This document shows, piece after piece, positions 1,029 to 20,280 of a stretch of DNA of 56,282 nt; position 1 is the stretch's first letter; every line of letters starts with the position of its first letter. The position numbers and the translations under genes were made by a program. The notes below the pieces were generated by a model. That model did not search any database. It saw nothing but the letters and a program-made list of their open reading frames with translations, and was not told the DNA's origin. This DNA is from Patescibacteria group bacterium. Lineage in GTDB: Bacteria > Pseudomonadota > Alphaproteobacteria > Micavibrionales > Micavibrionaceae. The stretch is taken from NCBI GenBank assembly GCA_035494535.1, contig DATJGZ010000082.1:1-56282 (forward strand), written 5' to 3'.

Positions 1029-1050
1029 ATATGATAATGTTCTCTACGAA
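1029..1050 (+). promoter_or_regulatory. Island motif copy (degenerate): ATATGATAATGTTCTCTACGAA
   Basis: TATGATAAT-N5-CTACG begins on the first base after the VOC stop codon, at the left island edge. Confidence 0.45.
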
Positions 1051-1275
1051 AATTCAAAATGATACTGAAGGATGGAAATAAACAAAGAACTGGGTCCAGA
1101 ACTTTTAAAAAAAATCGCCATTAGACCAGAGCGTCAAATTTAATTGACATAAATATTCGTTTCATTCACCATTTAATTAAGAGCTCTGCATCAGGAGCCA
1201 ACCCAATCCATCTGAAATTAACTAAGCAAATATTTCTGCCGACTCTCAACAGCAAGAGACCAGGAGGAAATACTG

Positions 1276-2091
1276 ATGACAATCAATGCAACGAACGGCA
1301 GCCACGAGCACCCTAGATATAGGGCGCCCACAAGGATTCCTACCGAGCAGTATAAAAAATGGACGAGCTTCATCGACAAAAAGGCTCGGGCTTTACGCAA
1401 AGAATTGAAATGTGCTCAGGGCCATCTTGAAGCCATTCACCATGCGTCTTTCAACTGGGGAATATTGCCTCAATACCAAAAGATGAATCTTCTTACAGAT
1501 CTATCAACCGATTTCTGTAGGATACTCGGCCTATCGGATATAAGGCTGTTTTCTAAAAACTCGTGGTCTAGTTACAAAGCAGCATCCCTCCATTTCAAAC
1601 AGGATTACGTTGCAAATTTTGAGATTGCAGAACAGGGCTGTTACGTCTCATCCGAAGGGGACAACTTTTCCCCTATGGTCATTTTATATATGGATAACGA
1701 AATCCTGAACGATCTCGGATTGTTTCCAGTCGTATCTACTTTGGGCCACGAAATTGGGCATTACTGTTTGGACGTATATTACAGGTTGCTTAATGCTCCG
1801 AAACGCAATGACCCCATGGATCACCAAGCCTCGTCATATTTTAAAGGCGTAACAACCGATGTCAAAACACTGACTGATTATCTCGATGTCATGAATTTTC
1901 TTATCGAGGACGAAGTCCATATTTTGCGGAAGGCTAATCTGCTCGAGGAGATATATGCAGCGATTGCAAGGGAAGACTATGAGCATCACGAAACATTGAC
2001 GCGAAAATATCTGCGACTGCCTGACGAGCAGGGCGCCGATTATGTTGGCAAGTCTCTTTCAAAAACCATTCAATCTTTGCTTTGCGATTAG
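1276..2091 (+). CDS. Orphan HExxH protein (putative Zn-metallopeptidase, ImmA/IrrE-like motif context)
   Basis: Strong SD AGGAGGAAATACTG precedes the ATG. VVSTLGHEIGHYCLD contains HEIGH. No signal peptide. Confidence 0.7.
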   Translation: MTINATNGSHEHPRYRAPTRIPTEQYKKWTSFIDKKARALRKELKCAQGHLEAIHHASFNWGILPQYQKMNLLTDLSTDFCRILGLSDIRLFSKNSWSSYKAASLHFKQDYVANFEIAEQGCYVSSEGDNFSPMVILYMDNEILNDLGLFPVVSTLGHEIGHYCLDVYYRLLNAPKRNDPMDHQASSYFKGVTTDVKTLTDYLDVMNFLIEDEVHILRKANLLEEIYAAIAREDYEHHETLTRKYLRLPDEQGADYVGKSLSKTIQSLLCD

Positions 2092-2178
2092 TGGGACAGT
2101 CACTCGTTAAGCCACAGCAAATTTAAATCATATCTAGAGGCGAAGATGAGCCGGTCAAAAACGCCCGATAAGGAAACC

Positions 2179-2201
2179 AATGTGGTAATGTTCTGAAATG
2201 G
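2179..2201 (+). promoter_or_regulatory. Island motif copy: AATGTGGTAATGTTCTGAAATGG
   Basis: TGTGGTAAT lies 37 nt upstream of the ATG at 2227. The downstream TTAYG half is not conserved. Confidence 0.45.
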
Positions 2202-2226
2202 AAATTAACTCAGACAGGAGATAAAA

Positions 2227-2427
2227 ATGAAAAATATCATATTTGCGTTTATTGCCTGCACGGTAATTGCCGGATGTGGAAAGATCGGAGCCGGTGGTGC
2301 GGTAAATCAACTGATGGGCAATTGGGCCGAAGTGAAACTGCCCGCCGATTGCAAAGTTAAGCAGATAGCTGGCGAGGAAGAAAGCGGAGTAATTATTCTG
2401 TGTGAAGATGGGAGAGTATTCCATTAA
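2227..2427 (+). CDS. Small lipoprotein (66 aa)
   Basis: SD GGAGA is 5 nt upstream. MKNIIFAFIACTVIAGCG has a lipobox (IAGC). Confidence 0.55.
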   Translation: MKNIIFAFIACTVIAGCGKIGAGGAVNQLMGNWAEVKLPADCKVKQIAGEEESGVIILCEDGRVFH

Positions 2428-2490
2428 GTCAGGAAACCTCCCAGACCAAAATCAGCGGTAGCAGGACTAAAAACCCCATTTGCCCGCGCC

Positions 2491-2514
2491 GATGTGATAA
2501 TGGAAATTATGAAT
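2491..2514 (+). promoter_or_regulatory. Island motif copy: GATGTGATAATGGAAATTATGAAT
   Basis: TGTGATAAT (2493-2501), then N5, then TTATG. Upstream of the GTG start at 2591. Confidence 0.55.
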
Positions 2515-2521
2515 ACCGATT

Positions 2522-2532
2522 GATTATCACAT
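2522..2532 (-). promoter_or_regulatory. Inverted half-copy of the island motif (GATTATCACAT, reverse complement of ATGTGATAATC)
   Basis: ATTATCACAT (2523-2532) is the exact 10-nt inverted repeat of ATGTGATAAT at 2492-2501. Confidence 0.5.
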
Positions 2533-2590
2533 TATCTGCCCGCAAAATCTTCAGTAGAATTGCTTTTCTTCAGAGGGGAGGGGCCACAAG

Positions 2591-3145
2591 GTGAGGGAAG
2601 TCTTCGAAATACGTCATACTATCGGCCTGAGCCAAGTCCTCGCCTATGAAGAGGCGGCTCAAACTCATCCCTTATTTTTAGAGCTACTGCAAAAACAGAG
2701 AGCAAAAAGGAAATCGTTAGCTGCTAAAAGCTATTTTAAGCTTCTTGTAAAGCTAACGGTTTTGGTCGCCATATTCCTTTATAGCGTGAGGGACAGCGCC
2801 ATTTTTATGTGGAACGTCGTGTTCTCAGCGGTCTTAATAATCGGTATTTCAATCTGGTCGTTAATTGACGCTCGGAAATTTATTCGTGGAGAAAAGGGGC
2901 CTGACACAAAGCACGAGATCGCAACGACAATAAACTCCATCGGAATTAAGAACCGCGTCACAATTTCCGGGAAGGAAATATCGGAAGAATATCCCTGGAC
3001 GAGCGTGGATCAGTTCTTTGACACGAAAAATTATATTTTTATAAATAGAGGAGAAAAAATTGATTATTTATCCAAAGGCGCGTTCAAGGATCCAGGCGAA
3101 GTTGAAGAGTTTCTGGAACAAGCGAAAAATTGGCGACGCGCTTAG
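2591..3145 (+). CDS. YcxB-like membrane protein
   Basis: GTG start follows SD GGGGAGGGG. Two adjacent TM helices (LVKLTVLVAIFLYSV, NVVFSAVLIIGISIWSL) precede a C-terminal domain (YPWTSVDQFFDTKNYIFINRGEKIDYLSKGAF). This is the YcxB architecture from memory. Confidence 0.55.
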   Translation: MREVFEIRHTIGLSQVLAYEEAAQTHPLFLELLQKQRAKRKSLAAKSYFKLLVKLTVLVAIFLYSVRDSAIFMWNVVFSAVLIIGISIWSLIDARKFIRGEKGPDTKHEIATTINSIGIKNRVTISGKEISEEYPWTSVDQFFDTKNYIFINRGEKIDYLSKGAFKDPGEVEEFLEQAKNWRRA

Positions 3146-3151
3146 AAGTGG

Positions 3152-3177
3152 GATGTGATAATATCTTTTACGCAAAA
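3152..3177 (+). promoter_or_regulatory. Island motif copy: GATGTGATAATATCTTTTACGCAAAA
   Basis: Starts 6 nt after the stop codon at 3143-3145. TGTGATAAT at 3154-3162, N5, TTACG. 37 nt before the GTG at 3199. Confidence 0.6.
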
Positions 3178-3198
3178 TAATGGGTCAGGGTTGCTTTA

Positions 3199-3495
3199 GT
3201 GAACAAAATAAGATTGAACGGATGGTTTCTCACATTTGCAATCGCCCTTGCTCTCCTTGGCTACCTTTATATCGATTATCAGGAATACAAGCAGAAATAT
3301 TCTGCGGCCTCTGGGCGCTACAAAATCACTGTAACTGTTGAAACGCCCGAAGGGCTAAAGACTGGCTCCGCCGTGCGCGAGATATATGCCAAAAGTGGCG
3401 GGCCAACAATGCTCGCAGAAGCATCAAGCGGTCATGTTGACGCTACCGGAGAGGCAGTGGTCGTCGATCTAGGCAAGCGCGGACCTCGTCCATAG
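3199..3495 (+). CDS. Small N-terminally anchored hypothetical protein (98 aa), possibly truncated
   Basis: GTG start, TM helix WFLTFAIALALLGYLYI. The ORF ends abruptly (GKRGPRP*), followed by 110 nt of non-coding sequence. Confidence 0.4.
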   Translation: MNKIRLNGWFLTFAIALALLGYLYIDYQEYKQKYSAASGRYKITVTVETPEGLKTGSAVREIYAKSGGPTMLAEASSGHVDATGEAVVVDLGKRGPRP

Positions 3496-3608
3496 TCTGG
3501 AATTTTCCCCTCCATGGATAGCCCGGCAGTTTAGGTTGCGTCCTTCTCGCCATTCGCAAGAGCTTGCACAAAAACAAGCCGTTTGCAAATTGGCCCCGCA
3601 AGCCTGAA

Positions 3609-4412
3609 CTAGGGATTGATTTGTTCGCTTGATTTTAAGTTCAAATTCCAGGGAATCTTTTGCCAAGGACTATCGGGCTGATCGGAGAGCTGCTTAAAAA
3701 CAGCTTTTTCCTTGTCATCATCCTTCACGGAACGGGAGTAATTCCAAAATCTTCTACCAATAAGATAATCGCGGCCGAGATCCTGCCACGATGAGAAAAC
3801 TGATTGTAGATGCATACCCACTGCGTATATGCGAGCCCAAGCTTCGTCTTCCGATAAATATCCAACCAGGTAACCCCACCGGCACAGGCTCACATATCGG
3901 CCAAAATCCCACGCCTGTATGCTTTTAGTACCAAGTTCTCTATGAGCGCTGACAATATCGAGACGGTTTTTTGTTTCACGGAGTTGGGCCACCGCTTTTG
4001 GTCCGGCTTGCGCCATCGCATCAGCTTCGTTTTTGGAATAGTTATCAAGAAACTTTCTGATTTCCGGGCCATCAATATTTGCTGCGTATAAATTAAACAG
4101 ACCGCGATTTCCTCCCTGTTCTATCCAGCTTAACGCAGCTAAAAAATCCTCGCGGTCTTGGATGCCCCACCAAGCTGTCATCGATTGACGCGCATCAATA
4201 ATATTTTGTTCTGTAATTATATCGCCGCCTAATAAGTCGTGTCGCTTATGGTTCATCTCCGTCAGGATGGCGGAGGTGGCTAATAACCAATCCTTCTGCC
4301 CCTGAGTTAAATGAATTGACGATGTGAATGGTTGCTTGCTCGATTGTGCATGGACAATTGTTGACGGCACCGAAATAAATGTAAGAAATAAAACGATGAT
4401 CAGAAAACGCAT
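3609..4412 (-). CDS. DUF1266-like protein with signal peptide
   Basis: AWDFGRYVSLCRWGYLVGYLSEDEAWARI matches the DUF1266 signature from memory. I chose the ATG at 4412 (MRFLIIVLFLTFISVPSTIVHAQS, signal-peptide-like) over the ORF-track start at 4463. Confidence 0.7.
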   Translation of the reverse strand: MRFLIIVLFLTFISVPSTIVHAQSSKQPFTSSIHLTQGQKDWLLATSAILTEMNHKRHDLLGGDIITEQNIIDARQSMTAWWGIQDREDFLAALSWIEQGGNRGLFNLYAANIDGPEIRKFLDNYSKNEADAMAQAGPKAVAQLRETKNRLDIVSAHRELGTKSIQAWDFGRYVSLCRWGYLVGYLSEDEAWARIYAVGMHLQSVFSSWQDLGRDYLIGRRFWNYSRSVKDDDKEKAVFKQLSDQPDSPWQKIPWNLNLKSSEQINP

Positions 4413-4730
4413 CAGATCCCGCCAAATAAGTAATGAGCGAACTATGGTACCATAAATCCACAAAGTGAAATCTTTTGAAAGATCAAAACCAGGGCCTGTC
4501 CTTATGAATAATTTTGTGAGCTTGCACTTGCATTAATTTGCGCCTTAAACCCCGGACCGAAATATACAGTCTGAAATACGGTTATATTAACTCTTGGGAG
4601 GCACCAAAATATTCGAACACTTGATCAGTAAAGTAAACGGCAGTTGCCCAAATGTAAGGCCATCGGTAGCATAAATCATCGGTCAAATTGTTATCTTTCA
4701 CATCGCGTGGCAAATAGAGAATAGATCTCC

Positions 4731-7700
4731 ATGAATTCATTTAGACTCATCATTGCACTCGTATTGTTGATGGCGATGTCTTCTGCCCGCCCATCGTATG
4801 CAAATGATATCAAAGCTCCTCTGGTCAGCGGCCAAGCGGCCACAGGCAATATAACCGGCACAGGGGTTGATACTTATACCTTCAAGACCAAAAAAGGCGG
4901 TTCTTTCGTTATCACCGTCAGTTCTAACGATCCTCACAATGACAAATTTACTCCACAAATGGAAATTAGTGGGCCTGAAAATATTTATGAAGTCGGCATT
5001 GTGCCGGAACCGCATAGCTTTGCCAGAAAACTCGAATCCAAAGTTCCGGAGGGAGACTGGACAGTAAAGGTCACTGGCGGCATGAGCGACGGTGATAGTG
5101 CTGTATCCGGGGCATATGAACTGACACTTCTCCAAGTACCAGGGGCAGTCGGTAAAAAGCTTAAGTTCGGCCAGCAGTACAAGAACGACATTCATGGCGG
5201 AGTACTCGATGTATATACATTCAGCGGAACGCCGGGTGTCACGGTTGAGATAAATACTGATATCACGGGCGATAAAAGCTTCTTCTCTTCGACGATGATT
5301 TTTGATCCCGCTGGTGTCACCATCAGTGACGAAGGCGCCGCGATTGGCAGTATAGGATCAAACCTTACAATGACCGCCTACGGTGATTATACCTTGATGA
5401 TTGGAAGCCAGGATTCAGGCAACGCTCAGGGAGGCTACACCTTATCGATAAACCGTCACGAAGAGGGGGCGAGCGAGCAAGAGGCCTCTACTCAATCTTC
5501 TGCGCCTGCATCGCCGCCATCACCACCCGCTGCGACGGCTCCGCCGACGCCCCCGATTCCCCCGGCCATGACGGTGGCGCAGGTATTCGATAACCCTGCC
5601 GCATATACCATTTACAGCAGGCACGTATTTCCTATGGCATTTAACCCCACAATGTATACCTCAGGAGGGTTACTTCTGACCCTTAATCCGGATGACCTTG
5701 GCAATACTCAAGACAGGAAAATGGTTAGGCAGGGCAATTTGCTGGCTTTGCTATATACCGGAGACTCAGAATTCAGGATGTCGAAGAGGAGGGCTGTAAA
5801 CGATTACTGGATTAAAGCCGCGGATAATGGGAATACGGATGCCCGAAACAGGCTTGGGATTCTTTATAGTATGATGAATGATGACCAAGCGCAGAATTAT
5901 CCGGCGGCAGACTGGTACAAGCGCGCTGTGGAACAGGGCAAGCTTGATAGGCCCGTCAAGATCTCAAATCTTTATCATGGCACCGAGCACCCGCAGGATG
6001 ATGCCGAGATCGTAAAGCTCGCAACAGGTTATGCGGAAAAAGGCGTGCCCGAGGCGCAATATGTACTGGGTGTAGCGTATGAAGCCGGGCAAGGGGTCCA
6101 GCAGGACTATGAGATGGCCGAAAACTGGTATCGAAAGGCAGCATCTCAAAATAATCGTAATGCCGAGTACGCGCTTGGGAAATTATACGTGAACGGGCAC
6201 GGGATGCCGCTTCCCTTACAAGCCTCAAATCCGCTACCACCGGATCCTTATTATGAAGGAGTAAGATGGTTCAAAAAGGCAGCTAATCATGGGCTTGCGC
6301 AGGCACAATTTCAGCATGCTCTTATGTTCCTTTATGGCGACGGCGAGAATATTGATTTCTCCATGGCCAGAGCATCCTTTCAGAGCGCTGCACAACAGGG
6401 TCTAGCCCCCGCCCAGTTCAATATTGCTCTCATGTGCGCGACAGGATTGGGCGGAGATACTGACTATGCATGTGCGGCGAAATGGTACGAGCGTGCAGCA
6501 GCTCAGGGATTGATTCTGGCACAGAACAATCTCGGAGAATTATTCGAACACGGCGCAGGGGTAACTCAGGACTACGAGATAGCCGCCAAATGGTACCGCG
6601 CCGCCGCCGAAACAGGTTATCCGGTCGCTCAATACAATCTGGGGCGTCTGTACCGCGATGGCCGTGGTGTTTCGAAGGATACATCGCAAGCAATGTCACT
6701 CTTCGCCAAGTCGGCCGCAGAGGGCAATGTAGAGGCACTGGCTGAGCTCGATGAACTGAAGGCAGCGGCTGGAAATCCTCAAGCCCGTGGTGAGGAAATC
6801 ACCGTCCTGCGAGCGGCGTCAGCAAACGGTGATAACGATGCTTTATTAAAGCTTGTCACACTTTATCGCTCAGAGGGAATCATGGCGGATGATTACGACG
6901 ATGTGCTGGCGTTGTACCGCAAGGCAGCCGAGCAGGTAAATCCGATAGCTTTTGTCGCCCTCGGGGATCTCTTCGCAAAGAAGGAACCGCCCGACTATGC
7001 AGAGGCGTATTTCTGGTACCGGCTTGCGATTGTTTCTATCGATAAATGGCGTATTTTTTCCGATGAAAAAGAGGATTTAACGAAATATGCGGAGGACATC
7101 GCCGCGAGAATATCCGGAAATCTGATGCCCGAGCAGGTTGCGGTCGCACAATGGCGCATCGCCGATCGTAGTCCACCCGCACCGGATAAAGAGCAACTGG
7201 CAGGCGCCGAACTTTACATCAAGGGCAACGTGGCTGAACAGAAAGGAGACTACTACAGGGCCATGGAATATTATATGGAGGCGGACAGCGATGATGTGGC
7301 TCTCGCGGCAGAAGATCTTGGCCGGTTCTTCGAACACGGTCTGGGCGTCAATCGCAATATGGAGCGGGCCATCTATTATTTTAAAAGAGCTGTCAGGAAT
7401 GGCCGGATCGGGACAGCGACATGGATCGGCGATATATATCTCTACGGCATCGGCGTTCCGGTGGATATCAACGAGGCTGCAAAGTGGTATCAGATGGATG
7501 CCGACCGAGGCTGTGTTCGCGCCATCCAAACTCTTGGCTGGATATATCTGTTTGGTGGGAAGGGTGAAGAAGCAAAAGCCATCGAATTGTACGAGAAAAT
7601 GGCCGCGCGCGATTCCAGATTCAATGCCGATGCATATGATCCACTCGGTATGATCTATCTCTATGGAATAGGGGTGTCGAAGGATCCGAAAAAGGCGCTC

Positions 7701-9574: not shown

Positions 9575-9585
9575 GTAAACCGTCT

Positions 9586-10245
9586 ATGAAGCCAATCAAC
9601 CTATATGTCCGAGAATTAATTTATGCCAGTTGTATAGGTCTCTGCTTAACCATCTCAGCCAGGGCCGGGGAAAATCGGGATGCAGAGACAGATTACACGC
9701 TTGGCATGAAATACTACATTGGGACCGATGAGATTGATCAAGATGTGAAACAGGCTGTTGAATGGTTCCGCAAAGCCGCAGAGCTTGGGCTAGCGAAGGG
9801 CCAGTATCGACTGGGTCAAGCTTATGATAGCGGCCAAGGTGTGCGGCAGGATTACCCCACGGCGATGCGGTGGTATCTGCTGGCTGCGGTGCAAGATGAC
9901 CGCGATGCGGAGTCAGCATTGGGAGATATTTACGCTGCTGGGCACGGCGTCAAGATTAACAACGATCAGGCGGCGAAATGGTACTACAAGGCCGCAGAGC
10001 AGGGCGTTGCTCATGCGCAGTCAGAATTGGGCAAGCTCTATTTTTCAGGCACAGGGGTTAAACAGGACTTTGTCGAGGCTTATTTTTGGCTCGGTGTCGC
10101 GTCGAAAGAGATAGACGATGCCGTTGATAAACGCGACGAAGCGGGAGAACGATTGACGCCCGCTCAATTAAGCGGAGTTCGGCACCGCATTGAAACGTGG
10201 CGACCGGAAATTGCGCAAGAAGTCGAAAGAAGCGGAAAACTGTAA
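9586..10245 (+). CDS. Secreted Sel1-repeat protein (219 aa)
   Basis: Signal-peptide-like N-terminus, four Sel1 units (GQYRLGQAYDSGQGVRQDYPTAMRWYLLAA etc.), and a C-terminal EAYFW...LTPAQL...W cap. Confidence 0.9.
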   Translation: MKPINLYVRELIYASCIGLCLTISARAGENRDAETDYTLGMKYYIGTDEIDQDVKQAVEWFRKAAELGLAKGQYRLGQAYDSGQGVRQDYPTAMRWYLLAAVQDDRDAESALGDIYAAGHGVKINNDQAAKWYYKAAEQGVAHAQSELGKLYFSGTGVKQDFVEAYFWLGVASKEIDDAVDKRDEAGERLTPAQLSGVRHRIETWRPEIAQEVERSGKL

Positions 10246-11600: not shown

Positions 11601-11742
11601 TTTATTCTCAATCGTCTCATTACACGTCAGAGCAAGGTGTTAAAGGCTTATCTCCGTGTAATTCCCTCAAAACAAATACGGCAAATATTCCATAAATTAT
11701 CAAGGGATATTTAATGATGATGTATCAAATTTTCATTATGGG

Positions 11743-14397
11743 GTGAACTTACGCGGGGACCTGATGAGGGATCGTAAAAATAACAACACATTTTTCATTC
11801 TATTCGTCGTCCTTCTGGGCGTCGGAGGTGCAGGATTCTTTCGCGCCTCGGCTAATCCGATGGCACTAAAGTTTTTTGCTGCGCTTGGAGATGCTGATGC
11901 GCAAAGACACCTTGGAGAAATAAATCTTTACGGCAATCCTAAGGATTATGCGGAAGCTCTGAGGTTGTTTCAACTCGCTGCAAAAAAAGGAGATCTTTGG
12001 GCCGAGAGCCGACTGGGAACAATGTATGCAGAAGGCTGGGGTGTGCAACAGGATTTTGAACAGGCCAAAAAATTATGGACCGACGGCGCTTCAAAAGGAT
12101 TTGCGGGAGCTGAGTATAACCTCGGGGTTCTTTATCAAAATGGCGATGGCGTAGAGCAAGACTCTAAACAAGCCAAATTTTGGTACCAGAAGGCTGCAGC
12201 ACAAGGGCACCCGTTGGCGCAAAAGGAACTTTCGCAACTTGCCCAGGTAGATTCCAATCCAGACCCTGACATCGGAAAGATGTCTACTGCGCCGCGGAAA
12301 AATATCAATATCAATATTCAGATCGATCCTGAAGTTAGTAGGGCAAATCACGAATATGATCGGATGGTTGCCAGTCTTTCGCCTGCCGAACAGCAAGAGC
12401 TGAAAGCTTTGGACGGCGAATTGGTCAAGGCGATCGAGCCGAAAATCGAAATTAAGAGTCAGGAAGCGGAATTCTCTGCTTGTGCAAAATCAGACCCTAC
12501 GTTTGAAGCCAGGTACAAGCAGATGATGCAGACGTTCAGACTTCGCAAGATGGATGATCTGACCTCTTTACACAGCTCCTTCATGGAGCGCATCAGCAAA
12601 ATCGATTACATCGATAAAGAAGCCTTGGGCAAGCACTTGTCATTTCAGGAAACCCTCTCAACCGAAATGGCAGGCGGACTGGCAATGGCTGCTGCTCAAA
12701 TGGATAAGGACGGAAAACTATGCGCGAAACTCAAACATGATTTGGAGACCGAATATGCCACACCGTATGTGGTTGCGGATCCGAGAGCAATGTTCGACAG
12801 CCAGCCGATGCGTGACGAAATAAGCGGTCGGATCAAGGAATGCTCATTTGGACTTCGTGAGGATACCAAAGATGGTCATGTCATCAGCACGACAATCCAC
12901 TTTGAAGGACCAGAAGTATCCTTCAGCGCAAAAGTAGCTAATCCTGACATGAGCTTTGTGCCGGTTAGTGATCTATGGATCAACTTTGGGGATTTCGATA
13001 CGAGGAGAGAGGCAAATTTTGGCCAAAGAAACCAGGCCATGCTTATGGGAACAATGCCTCCCACAACTATCATTCCGATCCTTAGCGCCGTTCGTGACGG
13101 TAATGTTGTATATTCTGTCTCGACAGCAGCAGCCGGGAAACCTTACCTCTTTGCTCCGGCGGCGGCACAGCCGCAACTGGCAAATACTGTCGCTAGCTGC
13201 GTCGCTACCCTTCAGCCGGATTATCTTGAGCCTCTTCGGAAGGCGGGGTTAAGTCCGATGCCTGACCCGCGCGATGTCGAGGCGATGTCCGCTCCTCCAA
13301 AAGACTTCATTTATAATGTTTCTGCCCTAAATCAGGGCGAAAATCCCGTAGGCTGCGTGTGGCAGACCACGGCGCATACAGAATCAGACGGCGCTCAAGC
13401 CGCCGCAGTGGTTATCGTCTACGGTGCTGCTGGCCCAATGACAAATATGACAGAGTTCTGGCTTATGGGCGCCGATCCCGCGACAGGGGGGCGTTTAATA
13501 TTTAACGACTTTCAAGTGACCGCCAAGACTTCTGATGGAAAAGTGATTGAGCCCGCCAAGATAAAGAGGGCGAAAATCACAATGGGACAGCTTGCAAAAA
13601 TTGCCCTGACGTCGGCCGATGCTGGTGGAATTGTTAATGCGATAGCTGAAAATGGCATGGAAGTTTCCGGCCGCACCCAAGAAAACAAGACTTTCAACTA
13701 TACACTGCCGGCGCCTGAGCCAGAGTCACTTAAGGCCTATAACGGATGCCTTGACCGGCTTCAGAAATACATAAGCGAACACAAGAACGCTCCTCAGGCA
13801 AAATCCGTAGCCCCGGCTCCCGACATTGCCCCAAACGCCGGACCCGATGAAAAATATCTCGCCTACGTCGATCAGGCGATGGCTGATCCATCTACCGCTA
13901 ACTGGATTATGATCCGTGAATTATATCCAGACACCTCCTTCTACAAAAAAATCGGCGGCACTTATCTTAGTCATGCCAGCCAGGAATTCATGGCTAAAAT
14001 GGGAGACAATCCTACGCCCGAGCAGATTGCTGCGTATAAAACATTCATGAGAGACCATTTCGCCAGCATCGGCGCCCACTCCAGAGCGATAGGTTTATAC
14101 GATAAAACGAAGGCGGGTTACATCAACGTGGAGCAGGAAAAACAAATCTATCACAGTCTCTTTACAAGTATCTTGAGTTCAGGCGACAGCCTGAGTCCCG
14201 CAACCGCTATGAAAGCCATTAGCGTTGAAGAAGTTTCATACGTTCTTAGCCACAGCCCTGGGGGACCGCCGGCACAACCGACTTTCAAACAGGATAATGG
14301 CAATTACTATGCAATAGCGGAGATCAGGAATCCTAAAACAGGTGACATGATGAAGACTTATTTTTTAGTCGACGGCCGGGCGCTCAAAGGGCCCTAG
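11743..14397 (+). CDS. Membrane-anchored Sel1-repeat protein with a roughly 700-aa orphan C-terminal region
   Basis: GTG at 11743 (alternative ATG at 11764). TM helix FFILFVVLLGVGGAGFF. Three to four Sel1 units, after which I recognise no family. Confidence 0.85.
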   Translation: MNLRGDLMRDRKNNNTFFILFVVLLGVGGAGFFRASANPMALKFFAALGDADAQRHLGEINLYGNPKDYAEALRLFQLAAKKGDLWAESRLGTMYAEGWGVQQDFEQAKKLWTDGASKGFAGAEYNLGVLYQNGDGVEQDSKQAKFWYQKAAAQGHPLAQKELSQLAQVDSNPDPDIGKMSTAPRKNININIQIDPEVSRANHEYDRMVASLSPAEQQELKALDGELVKAIEPKIEIKSQEAEFSACAKSDPTFEARYKQMMQTFRLRKMDDLTSLHSSFMERISKIDYIDKEALGKHLSFQETLSTEMAGGLAMAAAQMDKDGKLCAKLKHDLETEYATPYVVADPRAMFDSQPMRDEISGRIKECSFGLREDTKDGHVISTTIHFEGPEVSFSAKVANPDMSFVPVSDLWINFGDFDTRREANFGQRNQAMLMGTMPPTTIIPILSAVRDGNVVYSVSTAAAGKPYLFAPAAAQPQLANTVASCVATLQPDYLEPLRKAGLSPMPDPRDVEAMSAPPKDFIYNVSALNQGENPVGCVWQTTAHTESDGAQAAAVVIVYGAAGPMTNMTEFWLMGADPATGGRLIFNDFQVTAKTSDGKVIEPAKIKRAKITMGQLAKIALTSADAGGIVNAIAENGMEVSGRTQENKTFNYTLPAPEPESLKAYNGCLDRLQKYISEHKNAPQAKSVAPAPDIAPNAGPDEKYLAYVDQAMADPSTANWIMIRELYPDTSFYKKIGGTYLSHASQEFMAKMGDNPTPEQIAAYKTFMRDHFASIGAHSRAIGLYDKTKAGYINVEQEKQIYHSLFTSILSSGDSLSPATAMKAISVEEVSYVLSHSPGGPPAQPTFKQDNGNYYAIAEIRNPKTGDMMKTYFLVDGRALKGP

Positions 14398-14398
14398 A

Positions 14399-14914
14399 AT
14401 GGAGGCGCCTATGGAGAATAAATCAACATGCCATCAAATATGTTTACTAATTTTTGTGGGCATGCTTACAGCATTTTGGAATTCGTCATCATTTGCAGGT
14501 GAGGGGCCTGACTTCATAGGAGATAAAGATCAGGCGGTAATTACAAATATGAAATTCGCTCGCGATCATATCACTGGCGCACATCTTTTAGATGGATCCA
14601 ATGTCCGTCCCGAGACAGCAGAAGAATTAAAAAATCCCGTTATCCCGATTGAAGAAGGCAAACGGGTTGTTAACCGCGGTATTTTGACAGCATTAGCAAA
14701 GTACTGTGGTTTAGACGGACAAAATGACAGCTATCTCCCATTCATGAGCCACGAGCGCCAAAGCAAGCTGTGGTCTGACAAGCAACTCGCCTATATAGGC
14801 TTGTTGCACGGAATAACACAGGCAGAGTTTTATGATCTTTTTAAAAAGAAAGGAAACTGTTCCGATTTGCAAAAGCAACGAGTCCAAACTTTTCTCGATA
14901 ATATTGATAAATAA
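14399..14914 (+). CDS. Hypothetical secreted or anchored protein (171 aa)
   Basis: Starts 1 nt after the upstream stop. Hydrophobic N-terminus ICLLIFVGMLTAFWNSSSFA. Confidence 0.6.
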   Translation: MEAPMENKSTCHQICLLIFVGMLTAFWNSSSFAGEGPDFIGDKDQAVITNMKFARDHITGAHLLDGSNVRPETAEELKNPVIPIEEGKRVVNRGILTALAKYCGLDGQNDSYLPFMSHERQSKLWSDKQLAYIGLLHGITQAEFYDLFKKKGNCSDLQKQRVQTFLDNIDK

Positions 14915-14962
14915 GAAGTTGCAGCTGATACCTGAGAAAACTCAACTTCTGGATTTCGACGG

Positions 14963-14984
14963 GATGACGTTTTTTACGACAAAT
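14963..14984 (+). promoter_or_regulatory. Island motif copy (degenerate, -10 half missing): GATGACGTTTTTTACGACAAAT
   Basis: Keeps GATG and GTTTTTTACGAC. A GATAATAT half-site lies 59 nt upstream (14897-14904), across a hairpin. Confidence 0.35.
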
Positions 14985-14995
14985 GGGGGCTGGAC

Positions 14996-15865
14996 ATGAA
15001 ATTGATCAGATTGACGATACTAATTGCGGCGCTGCTCTTACCGGCGATCATCTCCCCAGTTGAAGCATCCCCTCTTGTGCCTAAAGTCGGCGATATCTAC
15101 GAAATTACCCGAACCAAGGATTCTGCCCAGAAGGGCACCGGATCCAACAGCAGCTCACACGATAAGGATACCATCATCGAGCGCGTAGTGGGACTACGCC
15201 CGGACGGCCTGGAACTGGAATACGACCTGCCGGAAACAACTAAGGCAGCCGAGAGAGCCAGCCAGTGGCAATTTCCCGCTAGGATTTTTAAACCAACTAA
15301 TGGACCGGCGGAGTTGCTCAACCGTCCTGAGCTCGAGGCAAGGGTGGCCGCGTGGCTCAAATCTGCCGGGGTTTCACGTGCCCTCTGCGGACATTGGTAT
15401 TTTACATGGAATGCGTTTCAAGTCGAATGCGATCCTCAATCAGTAATAAAAACGGTCAAATCATTCGAGCTGGGACCCGGTAATCTACATGAAGGGGATT
15501 CCTATCAAGACCCCGACGCAAGCAGGCCAGGAAAATTATCTAAAAAGGATTCCAAGCCGGACAAGGTGATTTTCTCCACCGAGATGCCAGTTGATCCCGA
15601 CGCCGTTCGTCGCGCTCGGGCGGAATCTGACGTTGTTGTAGGGGAAATAATGCGTGAGCCGGTCACTCTTGAGGCTGCGCTCAGTAAACACGCCAAGGAA
15701 ACTGTTTCAGGTACGATCTCCATCGACGTCGAAACAGGTTCTACTGGCAATGTGCGTCGACGGACAAAGGTATCAAAGGTGAACATTCAAGGTCCGGGCA
15801 CCCAGTCAGAGACAGACGCAACGACAGAAACTTTGGAACGCCGACTAATTTCACCAAGGCAATAA
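14996..15865 (+). CDS. Hypothetical secreted protein (289 aa)
   Basis: Signal peptide MKLIRLTILIAALLLPAIISPVEA. No family recognised. Confidence 0.7.
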   Translation: MKLIRLTILIAALLLPAIISPVEASPLVPKVGDIYEITRTKDSAQKGTGSNSSSHDKDTIIERVVGLRPDGLELEYDLPETTKAAERASQWQFPARIFKPTNGPAELLNRPELEARVAAWLKSAGVSRALCGHWYFTWNAFQVECDPQSVIKTVKSFELGPGNLHEGDSYQDPDASRPGKLSKKDSKPDKVIFSTEMPVDPDAVRRARAESDVVVGEIMREPVTLEAALSKHAKETVSGTISIDVETGSTGNVRRRTKVSKVNIQGPGTQSETDATTETLERRLISPRQ

Positions 15866-15894
15866 CAATCACCCTGTAATTGTAAGTCGAAAAT

Positions 15895-18800
15895 ATGTCA
15901 GATAATTCCGGGATTCAGAAAGGCGCAAAACCGAAAAAGCAATTTTCCAAGATACTTATTTTAAGTCTTTCATTTCTAATGCTGGTATTAGCCAGTCTTG
16001 GCCTGGTTAATCGATATTCTTCCAAGCCGCTGCCTTTTCCACTGCTAAAGGTTTTAGCACATCTTGGAGTTGCGGACGCCCAGAGGGCGATAGGCGAAAT
16101 GTACCTGTATGGATTTGGGGTCGATAAGGCTTTTAATGTCTACCCGATAAACAGCGTGAGCATAAACTATCCGGAAGCCTTCAAATGGTTTCAGTTAGCA
16201 ACAAGGAATGGAAACCTCCGCGGCGAGAGCAGGCTCGCGCTAATGTATGCTGGTGGCAAAGGTATCCCGGCAAACGTGGCCGAAGCGGTACGCCTTTGGC
16301 ATGACGGTGCTGATAAGGGCTATTCCCTGGCGCAATACAATCTCGGCGTCATGTACGCGAAGGGCGAGGGCGTTCCTCAAGATTATAACGAGGCAAGGAA
16401 ATGGTATACGAAGGCTGCTGAACAGAATCAGCCCCTTGCCGAAATGCAGCTTGGCCAGATTTATGATAATGGCTGGGGTACGAAGCGGGATTACAGCGAG
16501 GCCATGAAATGGTATCGCAAGGCCGCTCAACAGGGTGTGCCGGGTGCCCAATATCTTCTGGGGTATATGTACGACCATGCTAACGGCGTGGAACAGGATA
16601 ACGCCCAAGCAAGAGATTGGTATCAGAAAGCCGCACAAAATGGCGAGGAAGCCGCCCAGTTCAATCTTGGCATTCTTTACGAGACCGGAAGAGGCGGTGC
16701 CAAGGACTATGAAGAGGCCGCTAAATTATATAGTGCGGCCGCCGCGCAAGGCGTGGCCGACGCACAATTCAACCTTGGCGTATTTTATCAACTGGGCCGC
16801 GGCGTCAAGAAGGATTACGCTGTGGCCATGGACTGGTTTCAAAGAGCGGCAGCTCAGGGGCTCTGGCAGGCCAAATACAACATCGGCATGTTGTATTACA
16901 CCGGTAGTGGCGTAAAAACCGATTACCAAGAGGCTGCAAAGTGGTTCCGCGAAGCGGCTGGCGACGAATGGGCATCTGATGCGCAATACGCCCTTGGGTT
17001 GCTTTATATTAAAGGGCGCGGTGTTCCCCAAGATTACACGGCTGCTGCGCACTTCCTCCAACAGGCCGTCGATCATGGTGACAAACAGGCACAAAAATTA
17101 CTGCCTGAAGTTAATGAAATCATCAAAATAACCCCTAAAGATGACGCTGAAGCAGAGGTGGGCGGCCTTGATAAGGCAATCGAACATGGCAAAGCCGGTG
17201 AATATAAACTGATCGTCTATGAGAATTTGGTATTCAACAAAATAAACGACCACATGTCTGCCGGCGGACTCAATCATTCTGCGTTCGACGTTGACTGCGA
17301 TTATTTCAATTTTATTGAGAACCAAAAGAAAATCACCCGAATATGGAGCGATCCTGACACATTTCCCGAGACACTGTTAAAGCAGGAAGCGACATACAAT
17401 TTGACTCTGGCGCTCCTGCCCGATTTTCCCTATCCACATTTGTGCCATGTAAAAGATTCCCCGGAAGCGACTCGGGCCGTGGAAAAAATCCTTTCACGTC
17501 TCGGCATATCCCGCGGCGAATATGATGCGAGACGGCTAGCCGTCGAGAATTCATCGATTTTTACGGCATCCTTTTTCGGCCACATTGATGCAATTAGAAA
17601 ACACATTGCTGATCTAAATCAGGTCGACGAATTTCATCTTACTGCTCTTAAATACGCTTATATGGGCCAGCAGTTGGATGCCTTCAGGTTCCTTCTCGAT
17701 CATGGTGCCAATACCGGTAGCAACGCATCGTTGTTGCATTCGAAACCTGCTCTGGTCGGTTTCCAGGACAATGAAAACCTGTCGACCTGGCTTCTGCTTC
17801 CGATCCACTACCCGAGCAGCCGCCCATTTTTTGATCTTCTTCTGCAGTCCAAGCCTAAGCTGGATAAGCAAGGTATGAGTTTTGTTGTCAGGTATGCCGA
17901 ACCGGATCTTCTTGTTAAGCTTTTGGACTTAGGAGCCCCACTGCCTCGAATGCTGGACACAGACTTTCGCAGACCCCAAGCATTTGAAATCATAAAAACG
18001 CTTGTGAGTAGGGGGGCGTCAATTGCAAAGGAAGAAAATCCGAGCGACTTTATTGGCGGTCCTACTCAGTCTTTAGCCTGTGCAGCAATCATGGCCGGGC
18101 GTAACGAGATTCTAAAGTATCTGCTTGAACATGGGGCATCGCCAAATGGCTCGGCAAACCACATTCCCTTGTTTTGTGCGACGGAGGGCATCGACCTCAT
18201 CCAAAAGGGTCGAAACTATGAGATGGGTCCCCCCGTTCCTATAAGTTTAGATACGTTGGCCATTCTTCTAGATGCCGGCGCCGACCCAACACTTAAGGAC
18301 AGGAAGGGACATCATCTCCTTGAAAGCCTCTTGAACCCGAATGAACGGGCAAAAGTAGAGAAATTCCTGGCGGATCGGCATATAGATCTAATGGCGTTGG
18401 CTGCGGAGAAGGAAAAGAAAATAGCCGCCACAATTCGCTCGATGCCGATCGAAGACAAAGCGCGACAATGCACGTTGTTTAAATATTCCTCATATTGGTA
18501 TCTAGACTACGTCATTCCGGAACAATATCCGGAGGATCCCAAAAGGTTCTTCTCACGCAATTTTGACGAAGCGATCAGGCTCTGCCGTGAGGCAAAAGAA
18601 GCAGGAAATGCCGACGCTATAAAGTATCTTCCAACACTCCTCCAAAGAAAGGCCGAAATTATTATAGATACGCGCGATACAGCACACTATCCTGAAGCAA
18701 TATCTTTATATCGCGAAGCAGCTGAAACGGGATATCGCCCTGCAATTAGAGGACTTGCGGGATGCTATATGAGTGATCGATGCGGAATGAAAGAGGATTT

Positions 18801-18945
18801 TAAAGAAGCATATTTCTGGCAATTTTTGGATAATGAAAACCAAACCTATTATTTCGCCGCGACTAAACTGACGCCGGCTGACATAGATGTGGAGCAGAAA
18901 CGGGTGGCCGTATGGAAAAACTCGCACCCGAAAGTTCACGACTGA
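15895..18945 (+). CDS. Membrane-anchored Sel1-repeat / ankyrin-repeat fusion protein (1016 aa)
   Basis: TM helix ILILSLSFLMLVLASLGLV. About nine consecutive Sel1 units. Central ankyrin-like units (LTALKYAYMGQQLDAFRFLLDHGANT, ACAAIMAGRNEILKYLLEHGASPN, LAILLDAGADPTLKDRKGHHLL). C-terminal Sel1 unit with an EAYFW cap. Confidence 0.9.
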   Translation: MSDNSGIQKGAKPKKQFSKILILSLSFLMLVLASLGLVNRYSSKPLPFPLLKVLAHLGVADAQRAIGEMYLYGFGVDKAFNVYPINSVSINYPEAFKWFQLATRNGNLRGESRLALMYAGGKGIPANVAEAVRLWHDGADKGYSLAQYNLGVMYAKGEGVPQDYNEARKWYTKAAEQNQPLAEMQLGQIYDNGWGTKRDYSEAMKWYRKAAQQGVPGAQYLLGYMYDHANGVEQDNAQARDWYQKAAQNGEEAAQFNLGILYETGRGGAKDYEEAAKLYSAAAAQGVADAQFNLGVFYQLGRGVKKDYAVAMDWFQRAAAQGLWQAKYNIGMLYYTGSGVKTDYQEAAKWFREAAGDEWASDAQYALGLLYIKGRGVPQDYTAAAHFLQQAVDHGDKQAQKLLPEVNEIIKITPKDDAEAEVGGLDKAIEHGKAGEYKLIVYENLVFNKINDHMSAGGLNHSAFDVDCDYFNFIENQKKITRIWSDPDTFPETLLKQEATYNLTLALLPDFPYPHLCHVKDSPEATRAVEKILSRLGISRGEYDARRLAVENSSIFTASFFGHIDAIRKHIADLNQVDEFHLTALKYAYMGQQLDAFRFLLDHGANTGSNASLLHSKPALVGFQDNENLSTWLLLPIHYPSSRPFFDLLLQSKPKLDKQGMSFVVRYAEPDLLVKLLDLGAPLPRMLDTDFRRPQAFEIIKTLVSRGASIAKEENPSDFIGGPTQSLACAAIMAGRNEILKYLLEHGASPNGSANHIPLFCATEGIDLIQKGRNYEMGPPVPISLDTLAILLDAGADPTLKDRKGHHLLESLLNPNERAKVEKFLADRHIDLMALAAEKEKKIAATIRSMPIEDKARQCTLFKYSSYWYLDYVIPEQYPEDPKRFFSRNFDEAIRLCREAKEAGNADAIKYLPTLLQRKAEIIIDTRDTAHYPEAISLYREAAETGYRPAIRGLAGCYMSDRCGMKEDFKEAYFWQFLDNENQTYYFAATKLTPADIDVEQKRVAVWKNSHPKVHD

Positions 18946-18953
18946 ATGTGCCC

Positions 18954-18979
18954 AATGTGATAATATCTTTTATGAATAT
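18954..18979 (+). promoter_or_regulatory. Island motif copy: AATGTGATAATATCTTTTATGAATAT
   Basis: Starts 8 nt after the stop at 18943-18945. TGTGATAAT at 18956-18964. The next start codon is at 18980. Confidence 0.6.
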
Positions 18980-19489
18980 ATGAAAGATTCCGTAGCCGAA
19001 CGTTTTCGACTAGCAGTTTATTTACTCATCGCCTGCGGTGTCATTTGGCTTGGTAAAGTTATCTTTCACACATTTGTATCACCGGCAACGCCTCGCACGA
19101 TCGGGGAAAAAACTGAGCAATGCGATTTTGCTCTTCAATACACTGCCTTTGAGGCATTTAGTCTGTACATCAATAGGGAAGGGGCGTACACGTCGAAGGA
19201 TTTTAAAGAAGCGTTCGGATGGTGCGAACAAGCTGCCAACGCAGGAAGTCCCTTGGCGCAGGCTACATTGGCGGAGCTCTACGATATGAGTTCGCAGACC
19301 GGCGGAGTACCAAAGGACGATGCAGAAGCATATTTTTGGCTGTCATTGGCGCAAAAATCCAATCCTGCAGTGATCCCAAAAGTAACTAATTTGACTATAG
19401 GATATCTTCGAAAGCAGCTTACAAAGGATCAGATCGCAATTGTTGACCGTCGAGTACAAAATTGGAAGCCAGTCAGAAACGCGATGTGA
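18980..19489 (+). CDS. Membrane-anchored Sel1-repeat protein (169 aa)
   Basis: I chose the ATG at 18980 (MKDSVAERFRLAVYLLIACGVIWLGK) because the ORF-track start at 18887 overlaps the upstream gene. Contains a Sel1 unit and an EAYFW...LTKDQI...W cap. Confidence 0.75.
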   Translation: MKDSVAERFRLAVYLLIACGVIWLGKVIFHTFVSPATPRTIGEKTEQCDFALQYTAFEAFSLYINREGAYTSKDFKEAFGWCEQAANAGSPLAQATLAELYDMSSQTGGVPKDDAEAYFWLSLAQKSNPAVIPKVTNLTIGYLRKQLTKDQIAIVDRRVQNWKPVRNAM

Positions 19490-19508
19490 TAATAACTATT
19501 ACGACTAT
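19483..19508 (+). promoter_or_regulatory. Island motif copy: GATGTGATAATAACTATTACGACTAT
   Basis: Overlaps the TGA stop (19487-19489) of the upstream gene. TGTGATAAT at 19485-19493. The next ATG is at 19511. Confidence 0.6.
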
Positions 19509-19510
19509 AG

Positions 19511-19795
19511 ATGGAAACCAAAAATCAAAAGCAGACTAAAGAGCCTTTGCCTTTATCGACGCAGATTGTACTCGGTCTGGTACTTGGCGGATTAGCTTTC
19601 TTTACGTACCAGATGCTCCGTCTACGGCCTGTTCAGGTTCGAAGCGATGATCCTCCATGTCTCTACTGGGTCGGCAAGGTTGGAGCCAACTGCAAACAAA
19701 CTAGAACCGGTCAATGTCAGCACTGGCAGGATGAGCTTAATAAATGCCTAGAGAGCGTGAAAATCCGCGAAGAGAAACGTAACGACACTCGTTGA
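19511..19795 (+). CDS. Small membrane protein with a Cys-containing C-terminal tail (94 aa)
   Basis: TM helix IVLGLVLGGLAFFTY. Four Cys in the tail. No SD. Confidence 0.5.
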   Translation: METKNQKQTKEPLPLSTQIVLGLVLGGLAFFTYQMLRLRPVQVRSDDPPCLYWVGKVGANCKQTRTGQCQHWQDELNKCLESVKIREEKRNDTR

Positions 19796-19833
19796 TAGGC
19801 ATTGCTAACGGGGCAAACATAGCTTGGAATGCC

Positions 19834-19857
19834 GATGGATAATGTATCTTCTGAATA
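19834..19857 (+). promoter_or_regulatory. Island motif copy (degenerate): GATGGATAATGTATCTTCTGAATA
   Basis: Last copy, at the right island edge. A TTTTACGATATGAAT half-site follows at 19880-19894. Confidence 0.4.
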
Positions 19858-19907
19858 CTTCATCCGAATACCTCACTCATTTTACGATATGAATTAATTC
19901 CTATTCG

Positions 19908-19916
19908 TGCTATAAT
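19908..19916 (+). promoter_or_regulatory. Perfect extended -10 element TGCTATAAT with no ORF downstream
   Basis: Exact TGnTATAAT. Downstream are only an imperfect hairpin (19939-19963), a T7 run (19974-19980) and non-coding sequence. Confidence 0.3.
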
Positions 19917-20280
19917 CCGCATTGGTGATTTACATGGACCGGAATGGGCTGAATGCCATCCGGGCCGGAGGAATTTTTTTGCATCCGCACGAAAGGGCGG
20001 TGACGGAAATTTGAGCAAACGAACTGATATAAAACGCTGCTGCGGCGACCGGAACGGGAAAAACGCACATCGTGGCCCGGCGCCAATTAACTGCTTGAAT
20101 TTTCAGGAGCGAGAGGCAGCGGATTTTTTAAATTTCGACGAACGAACTGAACAGAATTTTTTGCGCCAGCGGAAAATGCACATTCTCAATTTTGTCATTC
20201 TGAGGCCGGAGGCCGAAGAATCTCTCTCTCAAAAAAAGGAAACTCCTCGCTTCGCTGAAGGTAACGCTGTTATCCGCACA

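Follow-up and report, generated by a model that had tools for sequence, protein, structure and literature searches.

Genomic islands that carry no mobility genes are common, and their arrival usually goes unexplained. This is the question raised by contig DATJGZ010000082.1 of assembly GCA_035494535.1, a stretch of 56,282 nt that is called the window here, in which an 18.9-kb segment of low GC content, filled with genes for predicted exported proteins of the Sel1 and ankyrin repeat types, stands between a native VOC gene and a putative lipase gene. An original prediction, made from the sequence alone, had recognised the segment as an island, had seen no direct repeat at its borders and had left the mechanism of acquisition unexplained. 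Direct repeats do exist there: imperfect 28-bp copies lie at 1027-1054 and 19832-19859, seven more lie inside, and the nine copies resemble in part the dif sites used by XerC and XerD. They supply a concrete mechanistic hypothesis, in which the island would be a cassette-like array joined by site-specific recombination, with the recombinase provided in trans, most simply by the XerC/XerD of the host. We give this reading an even chance; the whole account concerns one locus and was obtained by sequence analysis alone.

The nine sites are imperfect, all intergenic, in direct orientation on the + strand and confined to the island. Around a variable centre of 6 nt, each has two conserved arms, the left one of 11 nt (..GTGATAA) and the right one reading TTAYGA followed by A/T-rich sequence. 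Eight of them (s1-s8) were known from a repeat search and from a position weight matrix (PWM) of the sites, and s9 surfaced in the scan with a dif matrix described below. The copies are as follows.

1027..1054, + strand: site s1, AAATATGATAA TGTTCT CTACGAAAATT; shares two bases with the end of the VOC stop codon; left junction 2 nt away
2490..2517, + strand: site s2, CGATGTGATAA TGGAAA TTATGAATACC
3151..3178, + strand: site s3, GGATGTGATAA TATCTT TTACGCAAAAT; top score of the window on the dif PWM, 14.9 bits
10842..10869, + strand: site s4 (weaker), CAGTGTGACAA AAGAAA TTACGACAATC
11574..11601, + strand: site s5, TGATGTGATAA TGTTTT TTACGGCATTT
14957..14984, + strand: site s6 (weaker), CGACGGGATGA CGTTTT TTACGACAAAT
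18953..18980, + strand: site s7, CAATGTGATAA TATCTT TTATGAATATA; its final base doubles as the A in the ATG of the following gene
19482..19509, + strand: site s8, CGATGTGATAA TAACTA TTACGACTATA; includes the stop codon of the 169-aa Sel1 gene
19832..19859, + strand: site s9 (most divergent), CCGATGGATAA TGTATC TTCTGAATACT; after the last island gene, 28 nt from the right junction, with no + strand gene downstream

The pattern TGATAATN5TTAYG, with at most one mismatch, is matched six times against 0.47 expected, always on the + strand and always in the island, and in scans with the site PWM eight copies score 27-35 bits as compared with 14 bits for the next best position, and all the sites together 23-37 bits as compared with 12.7 bits for the next best of the 112,510 window positions. 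No conservation was observed in the sequence outside the 28-mers, and RNAalifold, run on 60-nt regions around the sites, returned no consensus pairs, that is, no conserved secondary structure. Between them, the sites delimit eight island modules, 0.3-7.7 kb in length. Five of the nine overlap the upstream stop codon or begin 0-7 nt after it, and the spacing between a site and the start codon that follows ranges over 0 to about 220 nt. Within the VOC coding sequence, 35 nt before s1, there is a weak look-alike of the 28-mer (CGAGGCGATGATGGACATGACGAAGATC; 965-992), which has the best non-site score in the window (12.7-14 bits). Being coding, present in a weaker version in an island-free relative (L081, see below) and not at the junction, it was judged a chance match, which may nevertheless have served as a pseudo-attachment site.

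For the comparison with dif, the 13 dif sites that Carnoy & Roten 2009 (PMC2731167, Table 1) list for Alphaproteobacteria were made into a PWM. On this matrix, s1-s8, sorted by score, occupy ranks 1, 2, 3, 10, 11, 27, 169 and 258 of the 112,510 window positions, and s9 came up at rank 9. In the register and orientation predicted, the eight copies average +5.4 bits, as against -17 to -41 bits in shifted registers on both strands and -2.8 bits on the reverse strand at shift 0, and none of 5000 column-permuted matrices reached the observed mean, the highest giving 1.5. By these scores, the likeness to Xer sites in the 11+6+11 layout and the inner core (GATAA-N6-TTAYG) goes far beyond chance, and the match of the sites to dif itself is only partial.

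Several other identities of the 28-mer were tried and set aside. By eye, the spacing is wrong for a sigma-54 site, the second half-site of a CRP site (TGTGA) is missing, a Fur box would have a single GATAAT hexamer at the wrong spacing, and a CtrA site would need the TTAA that is not there. An attC site was rejected for want of a hairpin, and a miniature inverted-repeat transposable element or a duplicated gene end because the flanks are unconserved. Eight single matches to the 28-mer in viral contigs were taken as chance and not as attP. Four of these eight share one 28-mer, and in the two that were checked (L130 and L133) the match lies inside an open reading frame (ORF) of 166 aa beside one of 857 aa.

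The junctions were fixed by comparison with relatives that lack the island. The island and its native flanks are:

1025..19887, no strand: island proper, 18.9 kb, 47.7% GC, missing in relatives; the alignment with relative L081 ends at 1024 and restarts at 20293, and that with relative L137 runs from 20182 to 19888
549..1028, + strand: native VOC/PhnB-type gene (3-dmu-9_3-mt), left flank; Pfam 8e-48, 85% nucleotide identity to L081 up to 1024, final codons replaced at the junction
19888..20182, no strand: native conserved non-coding element E, right flank; terminates with the palindrome GGAATTAATTCC; three lineages have their common breakpoint at its distal end
20281..21117, - strand: native 278-aa GxSxG protein, putative lipase, right flank; no family match, always paired with the lipase maturation factor (LMF) homologue
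21179..23008, + strand: LMF homologue (DCC1-like + LMF1 + LMF1_C), right flank; start codon uncertain

In L081 (GCA_964423895.1) only about 0.8 kb, with two small GC-rich genes, separates VOC from the lipase gene, and the window aligns to this genome at 84-85% nucleotide identity over 538-1024 (VOC) and 20293-22692 (lipase and LMF). The original prediction had proposed adjacency of the two genes where the island is absent as a check, and near-adjacency is what is seen. Other relatives (L083-86, L087-92 and L137) keep the lipase and LMF genes and hold different genes at the island position, and farther relatives hold yet others; the block is not ancestral, in agreement with the original reading of it as an island. 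L137 has about 85% nucleotide identity over the lipase-LMF flank and aligns with window positions 20182-19888, so that the right junction is 19887|19888 and the low-GC stretch 19888-20292 is native non-coding sequence shared with relatives. The border had been placed too far to the right, near 19990, with GC recovery near 20000. The window, L137 and L083/84 part at one shared point, after ...ATAGCACAAATAGGAATTAATTCATA, with three different contents beyond it. Since relatives hold differing content from a common breakpoint, the locus is a recurrent recombination hotspot, at which they differ by replacement and not by simple insertion. No repeat families of their own were found in the variable regions of the relatives.

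Element E, which marks this breakpoint, is about 300 nt long and adjoins the 3' end of the lipase gene. Its counterparts are L137 1167-1454 and L083 5900-6182, the latter shifted 2.7 kb away from the lipase. The palindrome is a perfect one of 12 bp, with two copies in L137, and the element gave no Rfam match and no fold signal. On the left flank, an exact look-up of the VOC protein matched no record.

The segment is compositionally foreign, horizontally acquired and not ancestral. GC content is 61.9% at 1-1028, 47.7% at 1029-19859 and 56.5% at 20293-56282, and in 1-kb windows it ranges over 41.8-53.8% in the island and 50.9-64.0% outside. The sharp drop that the original prediction had seen right after the VOC stop codon holds (0.59-0.71 in 100-nt steps before it, 0.32 at 1050); its figure of 37-48% for the interior is too low, the centre at 5-8 kb reaching about 52%. 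GC at third codon positions is 0.39-0.54 in island genes versus 0.63-0.86 in flank genes, and the tetranucleotide distance to the rest of the window is roughly doubled (2.2-4.1 versus 1.4-2.0 elsewhere). All three measures break at the island, so the profile is not flat and the predicted low-GC island is real. Among the modules GC is fairly even, at 0.43-0.50. As had also been predicted, mobility genes are missing: no integrase or transposase Pfam match was obtained among all ORFs scanned across the 56-kb window, and its two tRNA genes lie at 23351 and 40374, the closer one (Val, 23351) 3.4 kb from the island and beyond two native genes.

The host is an uncultured soil alphaproteobacterium of a free-living-type lineage of metagenome-assembled genomes (MAGs), with a full nuo operon and 56% GC. 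The best matches of NuoD are mitochondrial and Paracoccus complex I (620-633 bits versus 336 bits for E. coli), and NuoF clusters at 90% identity with proteins of MAGs that NCBI labels 'Alphaproteobacteria bacterium'. The window is itself a MAG contig, and its island begins only 1 kb from the contig end, so a chimeric assembly joining a low-GC and a high-GC organism has to be considered. Both junctions lie within one contig, and both flanks are syntenic with relatives. Moreover, island fragments of at least 99.85% identity with the gene order kept were found in several soil metagenomes, and independent assemblies of at least four other samples reproduce internal island segments, although no readable fragment spans a junction. 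Because such fragments recur, a chimera is very unlikely, to the point of being hardly credible. All the other copies of the island that were found belong to the same strain.

How, then, might the island have been built? If the 28-mers are recombination sites and Xer acts on them, both of which we infer from their likeness to dif, the modules would have been captured or joined at these sites by site-specific recombination. As the window encodes no recombinase, the enzyme would act in trans, with host XerC/XerD as the simplest candidate and an unlinked XerD-family enzyme as the alternative. Whenever a module integrated into a site already present, the array would grow by one module and one site, so that n modules would come to have n+1 direct sites, the outer ones at the ends. 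Eight modules with nine direct sites, the outermost at the island ends, are the pattern expected from such serial integration.

Arrays with some of these properties are known. According to Ross et al. (2019; preprint 10.1101/471110), rAID-1 clusters of Bacteroidales show skewed GC content, an XerD-family recombinase and repetitive intergenic sequences, and they can exceed 16 kb. The island resembles them in its skewed GC, its large co-oriented array and its intergenic repeats, compared here by description, in a link to XerD-family enzymes, here through the dif-like form of the repeats, and in a diverse, fast-evolving and poorly conserved cargo of small families. It differs in having no recombinase adjoining the array, the gene upstream of s1 being of the VOC/PhnB type. 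It also lies in another phylum, no island gene matches a known immunity family, and several genes encode very large multi-domain Sel1/ankyrin proteins.

Integrase-less integron arrays (clusters of attC sites lacking integron integrases, CALIN) likewise consist of co-oriented, mostly orphan genes without an integrase nearby, with a recombination-type repeat right behind the gene stop codon and with small cassettes filled by ORFs, as in modules 7 and 8. The island repeats, in contrast, are 28-bp core-type sites without conserved structure and not attC hairpins of 57-141 bp, and some island modules are multi-gene and contain opposite-strand genes. Integrative mobile elements exploiting Xer (IMEX) include the CTX/TLC arrays of Vibrio, the gonococcal genetic island and the Jorvik-like prophages of Alphaproteobacteria. 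The likeness to them is that the island has no integrase of its own and is bounded by direct repeats that are in part dif-like, and that successive integrations would yield tandem elements separated by sites. Classical IMEX use the true chromosomal dif, whereas the island shows no terminus skew and its relatives no dif-like site; it also lacks phage and replication genes, and its sites differ from the TTATG that is nearly invariant in dif. The Jorvik-like prophages, which lack an integrase, use dif-like attP/attB at variable loci, so an alphaproteobacterial Xer-type attB can lie off the terminus (PMC10589892). The dif (pdif) modules of Acinetobacter plasmids and chromosomes (described, for example, in PMC6449649 and PMC12907356) are accessory modules of about 0.5-8 kb with 28-bp sites of the XerC-spacer-XerD type and no module recombinase. 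The island resembles them in its discrete accessory modules without a recombinase and, in part, in its 28-bp sites. It departs from them in being chromosomal and alphaproteobacterial and in carrying Sel1-type envelope proteins instead of resistance or toxin-antitoxin genes. The orientation differs as well: the sites flanking Acinetobacter dif modules are inverse and alternate along the plasmid, whereas all nine island sites are direct. The array falls outside the full definitions of rAID-1, dif modules, IMEX and CALIN alike.

Between 1276 and 19795 the cargo amounts to 16 ORFs, one of them a gene for a 66-aa lipoprotein (2227-2427), where 17 ORFs had been predicted. Fourteen of them are on the + strand, and the intergenic fraction of the island is 8.6%. 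By module, they are:

1276..2091, + strand: module 1, HExxH271, putative zincin, cytoplasmic; GHExGHY and PDE motifs invariant, no Pfam, NCBIfam or PHROG match
2227..2427, + strand: module 1, 66-aa lipoprotein; lipobox IAGC, also called as a gene on JGI contig L136
2591..3145, + strand: module 2, 184-aa membrane protein; YcxB-like, borderline score
3199..3495, + strand: module 3, 98-aa protein with N-terminal anchor
3609..4412, - strand: module 3, DUF1266 protein of 267 aa; signal peptide, Pfam 6.8e-38, divergent from the 1155-aa Sel1 gene
4731..8198, + strand: module 3, 1155-aa protein, predicted exported; two beta-rich N-terminal domains (PPC-like, sub-threshold), proline-rich linker, at least 8 Sel1 repeats
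8195..9574, + strand: module 3, 459-aa helical-repeat protein, predicted exported; DUF4034/TPR
9586..10245, + strand: module 3, 219-aa Sel1 protein
10272..10832, - strand: module 3, 186-aa protein; two transmembrane segments, no family detected
10952..11566, + strand: module 4, 204-aa protein; two CxxC...CxxC zinc ribbons (ClpX-ZnF-like, sub-threshold), no signal peptide
11764..14397, + strand: module 5, 877-aa protein; N-terminal signal/anchor, 3 Sel1 repeats, 711-aa C-terminal region without detectable homologue
14399..14914, + strand: module 5, 171-aa orphan, predicted exported
14996..15865, + strand: module 6, 289-aa orphan, predicted exported
15895..18945, + strand: module 6, 1016-aa membrane-anchored protein; eight Sel1 repeats, ankyrin repeats, C-terminal Sel1 region
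18980..19489, + strand: module 7, 169-aa anchored Sel1 protein; occupies the whole module
19511..19795, + strand: module 8, 94-aa anchored orphan

Sel1 (PF08238) is above the Pfam threshold of 30.7 bits in five proteins (1155, 219, 877/884, 1016 and 169/200 aa, with 229, 110, 79, 251 and 36 bits, respectively). Six Sel1 or related proteins had been predicted, of which these five stand, and the sixth, the 459-aa protein, belongs to DUF4034/TPR. The ankyrin call in the 1016-aa protein (Ank_2 43-44 bits, cut-off 27.3; Ank 32.5-36.8 bits, cut-off 21.1) and the DUF1266 (131 bits, cut-off 27) and DUF4034 (51.5 bits, cut-off 21.3) calls were likewise recovered above threshold. The PPC (16.9 versus 25.9), YcxB (23.0 versus 23.3) and zinc-ribbon (zf-C4_ClpX, 19.2 versus 27) calls of the original prediction were not, and amount to resemblance only. 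The Sel1 proteins of the island are paralogous to one another, and the N-termini of the 877- and 1016-aa proteins share 43% identity over 168 residues. With a simple hydropathy and lipobox script, 13 of the 16 ORFs show an N-terminal hydrophobic segment or a lipobox, and the 219-aa Sel1 protein was added by eye. The resulting 14 of 16 agree with the view that nearly all carry a signal, lipobox or anchor, HExxH271 and the zinc-ribbon protein having no N-terminal signal or anchor.

Homologues of the cargo are scarce. A word-indexed search of 5.8 billion proteins brought up no homologue of the C-terminal 711 aa of the 877-aa protein, and an exhaustive HMMER scan of 1.84e9 representatives gave just two distant relatives of HExxH271, with 39% and 32% identity. 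HExxH and PDE are unchanged in an alignment of these three, so that the predicted HExxH protein is confirmed at the level of its motif. The family is tiny, amounting to three 50%-identity clusters among the 1.84 billion representatives, and a neighbour of one of the two relatives carries an Lcl_C domain. An AlphaFold2 model of HExxH271, made from the three-sequence alignment, has a pLDDT of 68 and no Foldseek match with E<0.5; the modelled strand-strand-helix order around HExxH is compatible with a zincin and does not count as evidence for one. Searches of PHROGs, NCBIfam and PDB sequences with the island orphans gave nothing usable, and Rfam and folding of the island gave nothing.

Compared with E. 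coli, the DUF1266 protein shares 30% identity with YbeR (E 1e-10), and 109 residues of the 219-aa Sel1 protein align with YbeT at 43% identity. In E. coli K-12, too, a DUF1266 gene is divergent from a Sel1-repeat gene (ybeQ-ybeR and ybeT-ybeU; L097, 675570-680215). The E. coli pairs lie next to djlB, djlC and hscC, whereas the island has no J-domain or Hsp70 partners, and the island proteins, as a further difference, carry export signals. Relatives of the DUF1266 protein in metagenomes show 25-51% identity, the closest 43-51%; near them (L099-L127) no Sel1 gene (tblastn), no other island homologue and no copy of the site was detected. The literature on DUF1266, DUF4034 and ybeQRTU yielded nothing functional.

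With the cargo in view, the competing explanations can be weighed, beginning with the nature of the 28-mer. It might be a transcriptional signal, that is, an extended -10 promoter (TGnGATAAT) with an initiation region (TTACGA), or the operator of one regulator, which co-expresses the units of an island that arrived as one block by homologous recombination at the hotspot after conjugation or transduction. We consider this possible, though not probable. Part of what argues for it weighs directly against Xer-mediated assembly: TGTGATAAT fits the extended -10 consensus and is intact in seven of the nine copies, all copies stand on the strand of 14 of the 16 genes, and eight of the nine precede a + strand gene. 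Replacement of content among relatives would fit flank-mediated exchange, the even GC of the modules is compatible with a single donor, and no attB-like site was found in the relatives. The Xer reading has difficulties of its own as well. Among the relatives none shows a single dif-like sequence as an empty site, no structural variant missing one module was found among the island copies, and no second array of this site family occurs in any locus retrieved. On the dif PWM, genuine alphaproteobacterial dif sites reach 15-37 bits and those of the island -7 to +15 bits; the latter read TTACG in six of nine cases and TTCTG in s9, whereas TTATG is found in all but one of the dif sites of the Carnoy & Roten table (PMC2731167). 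The outer part of the left arm (ATGTG), conserved among the island sites, does not resemble the XerC arm of dif and may be bound by a different protein. Finally, the locus is not the chromosomal dif or terminus, as GC skew keeps its sign across the window, which is a weak test with a left flank of only 1 kb. A promoter, on the other hand, leaves other observations unaccounted for. No conserved -35 element is present and a promoter scan flags one site only; s9 has no gene to drive; s1 and s5 stand beside the upstream stop codon, about 160-220 nt before the next start; and s7 and s8 would give 5' leaders of only about 8-10 nt without a Shine-Dalgarno sequence. Neither the coincidence of the terminal copies with the island junctions nor the 11+6+11 layout, matching dif in a single register, would be explained.

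The function of the cargo can be argued with either mechanism. Because 14 of the 16 proteins are predicted to be exported and Sel1, ankyrin and TPR repeats bind proteins, we infer that the island proteins would serve as adaptors or neutralisers in the envelope or periplasm, either for defence or in interactions of the envelope. This role is drawn only from the types of domain and the predicted export, which is a further point against the account preferred here. Sel1-like periplasmic proteins provide immunity to phospholipase-D effectors of type VI secretion systems in Pseudomonas. The island could be a store of orphan immunity or defence proteins that neutralise competitors' toxins in the periplasm, an alphaproteobacterial counterpart of rAID-1, but we think this rather doubtful. 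It has three hallmarks of rAID-1 (a skewed GC content, intergenic repeats and a large array of about 16-19 kb with co-oriented genes), the predicted periplasm or membrane location of 14 of its 16 proteins, and a strain-specific, orphan-rich gene set. Yet it has no adjacent XerD-family recombinase, which is defining for rAID-1, no toxin or secretion genes are nearby, and three of its proteins, at 877-1155 aa, are far above the typical size of immunity proteins. Nor was an Imm or other immunity or toxin family matched with whole proteins at Pfam E<=0.01 or with rescanned segments and orphans at E<=1, a search to which the curated Bacteroidales immunity set did not belong. A Legionella-type arsenal that manipulates a eukaryotic host such as an amoeba, suggested by the Sel1 and ankyrin repeats, appears less probable still. 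In its favour, among the relatives of the 219-aa protein with solved structures, the closest are Legionella LpnE (6deh), E. coli EsiB (4bwr), Helicobacter HcpC/HcpB (1ouv, 1klx) and some others, and the Lcl_C domain next to one HExxH271 relative points the same way. But genes for type III, IV or VI secretion were not found in the 56-kb window, and Sec-type N-termini and anchors would retain the proteins in the envelope if no second step of secretion follows. The host lineage is of the free-living type, the divergent DUF1266/Sel1 pair also occurs in E. coli K-12, where it is not a host-manipulation locus, and Sel1 proteins are widespread in bacteria without host association.

As an object, the island is of an ordinary kind; a recombinase-less array of nine direct dif-like sites is not. 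With the sites delimiting eight modules and the outermost copies at the junctions, the locus offers a testable mechanism. To our knowledge, modules bounded by Xer sites are so far known almost only from Acinetobacter plasmids, phage-like IMEX and the rAID-1 of Bacteroidales. If Xer or a related recombinase acts on the sites, such modules would extend to the chromosomes of soil Alphaproteobacteria, with a new class of cargo, namely exported Sel1/ankyrin proteins without homologues in billions of sequences (two of the proteins were searched, and these are near-orphans). Only tentatively would we go on to propose an undescribed alphaproteobacterial platform for gene capture, an integron- or rAID-like chromosomal array with degenerate dif sites, a recombinase in trans and orphans of the exported Sel1/ankyrin type, possibly for defence or immunity. 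If the sites are promoters, the outcome would be more ordinary, an orphan island borne by a hotspot, with one regulon-type signal. In addition, the locus gives a handle on the uncharacterised DUF1266-Sel1 pairing that is common to the island and E. coli.

Further observations concern the right flank. The 278-aa GxSxG protein has just seven homologue clusters in a search of 5.8 billion proteins, and its gene adjoins that of the LMF homologue in every relative whose contig extends far enough. This LMF is a bacterial homologue of the eukaryotic lipase maturation factor with a DCC1-like thiol-disulfide oxidoreductase domain, its gene being divergently paired with that of the GxSxG protein; the pairing is absent from 80 more distant LMF loci. 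The two may form a dedicated lipase/maturase pair. Among the matches listed in a search of species-representative genomes with LMF, the best were 63% identical and showed no VOC/lipase synteny. In a more distant relative (L088, 6895-6940), a perfect 23-nt tandem duplication (TCATTATTTTCCAATAGAATGCC twice) lies in the short stretch between the LMF and lipase genes.

Farther to the right, the nuo operon (nuoB, C, D, E and F; 44855-53679) is interrupted by unrelated ORFs. A DUF882/peptidase M15 gene (45491-46165) and a 471-aa ORF without family lie in the gap between nuoB and nuoC, a 276-aa membrane-like ORF in that between nuoD and nuoE, and a metallophosphoesterase gene (51153-52028) in that between nuoE and nuoF. 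Also outside the island, a gene for a DUF6782 putative metallopeptidase (31843-32826) is surrounded by family-less ORFs of 339-624 aa (27994-35834) with native GC content.

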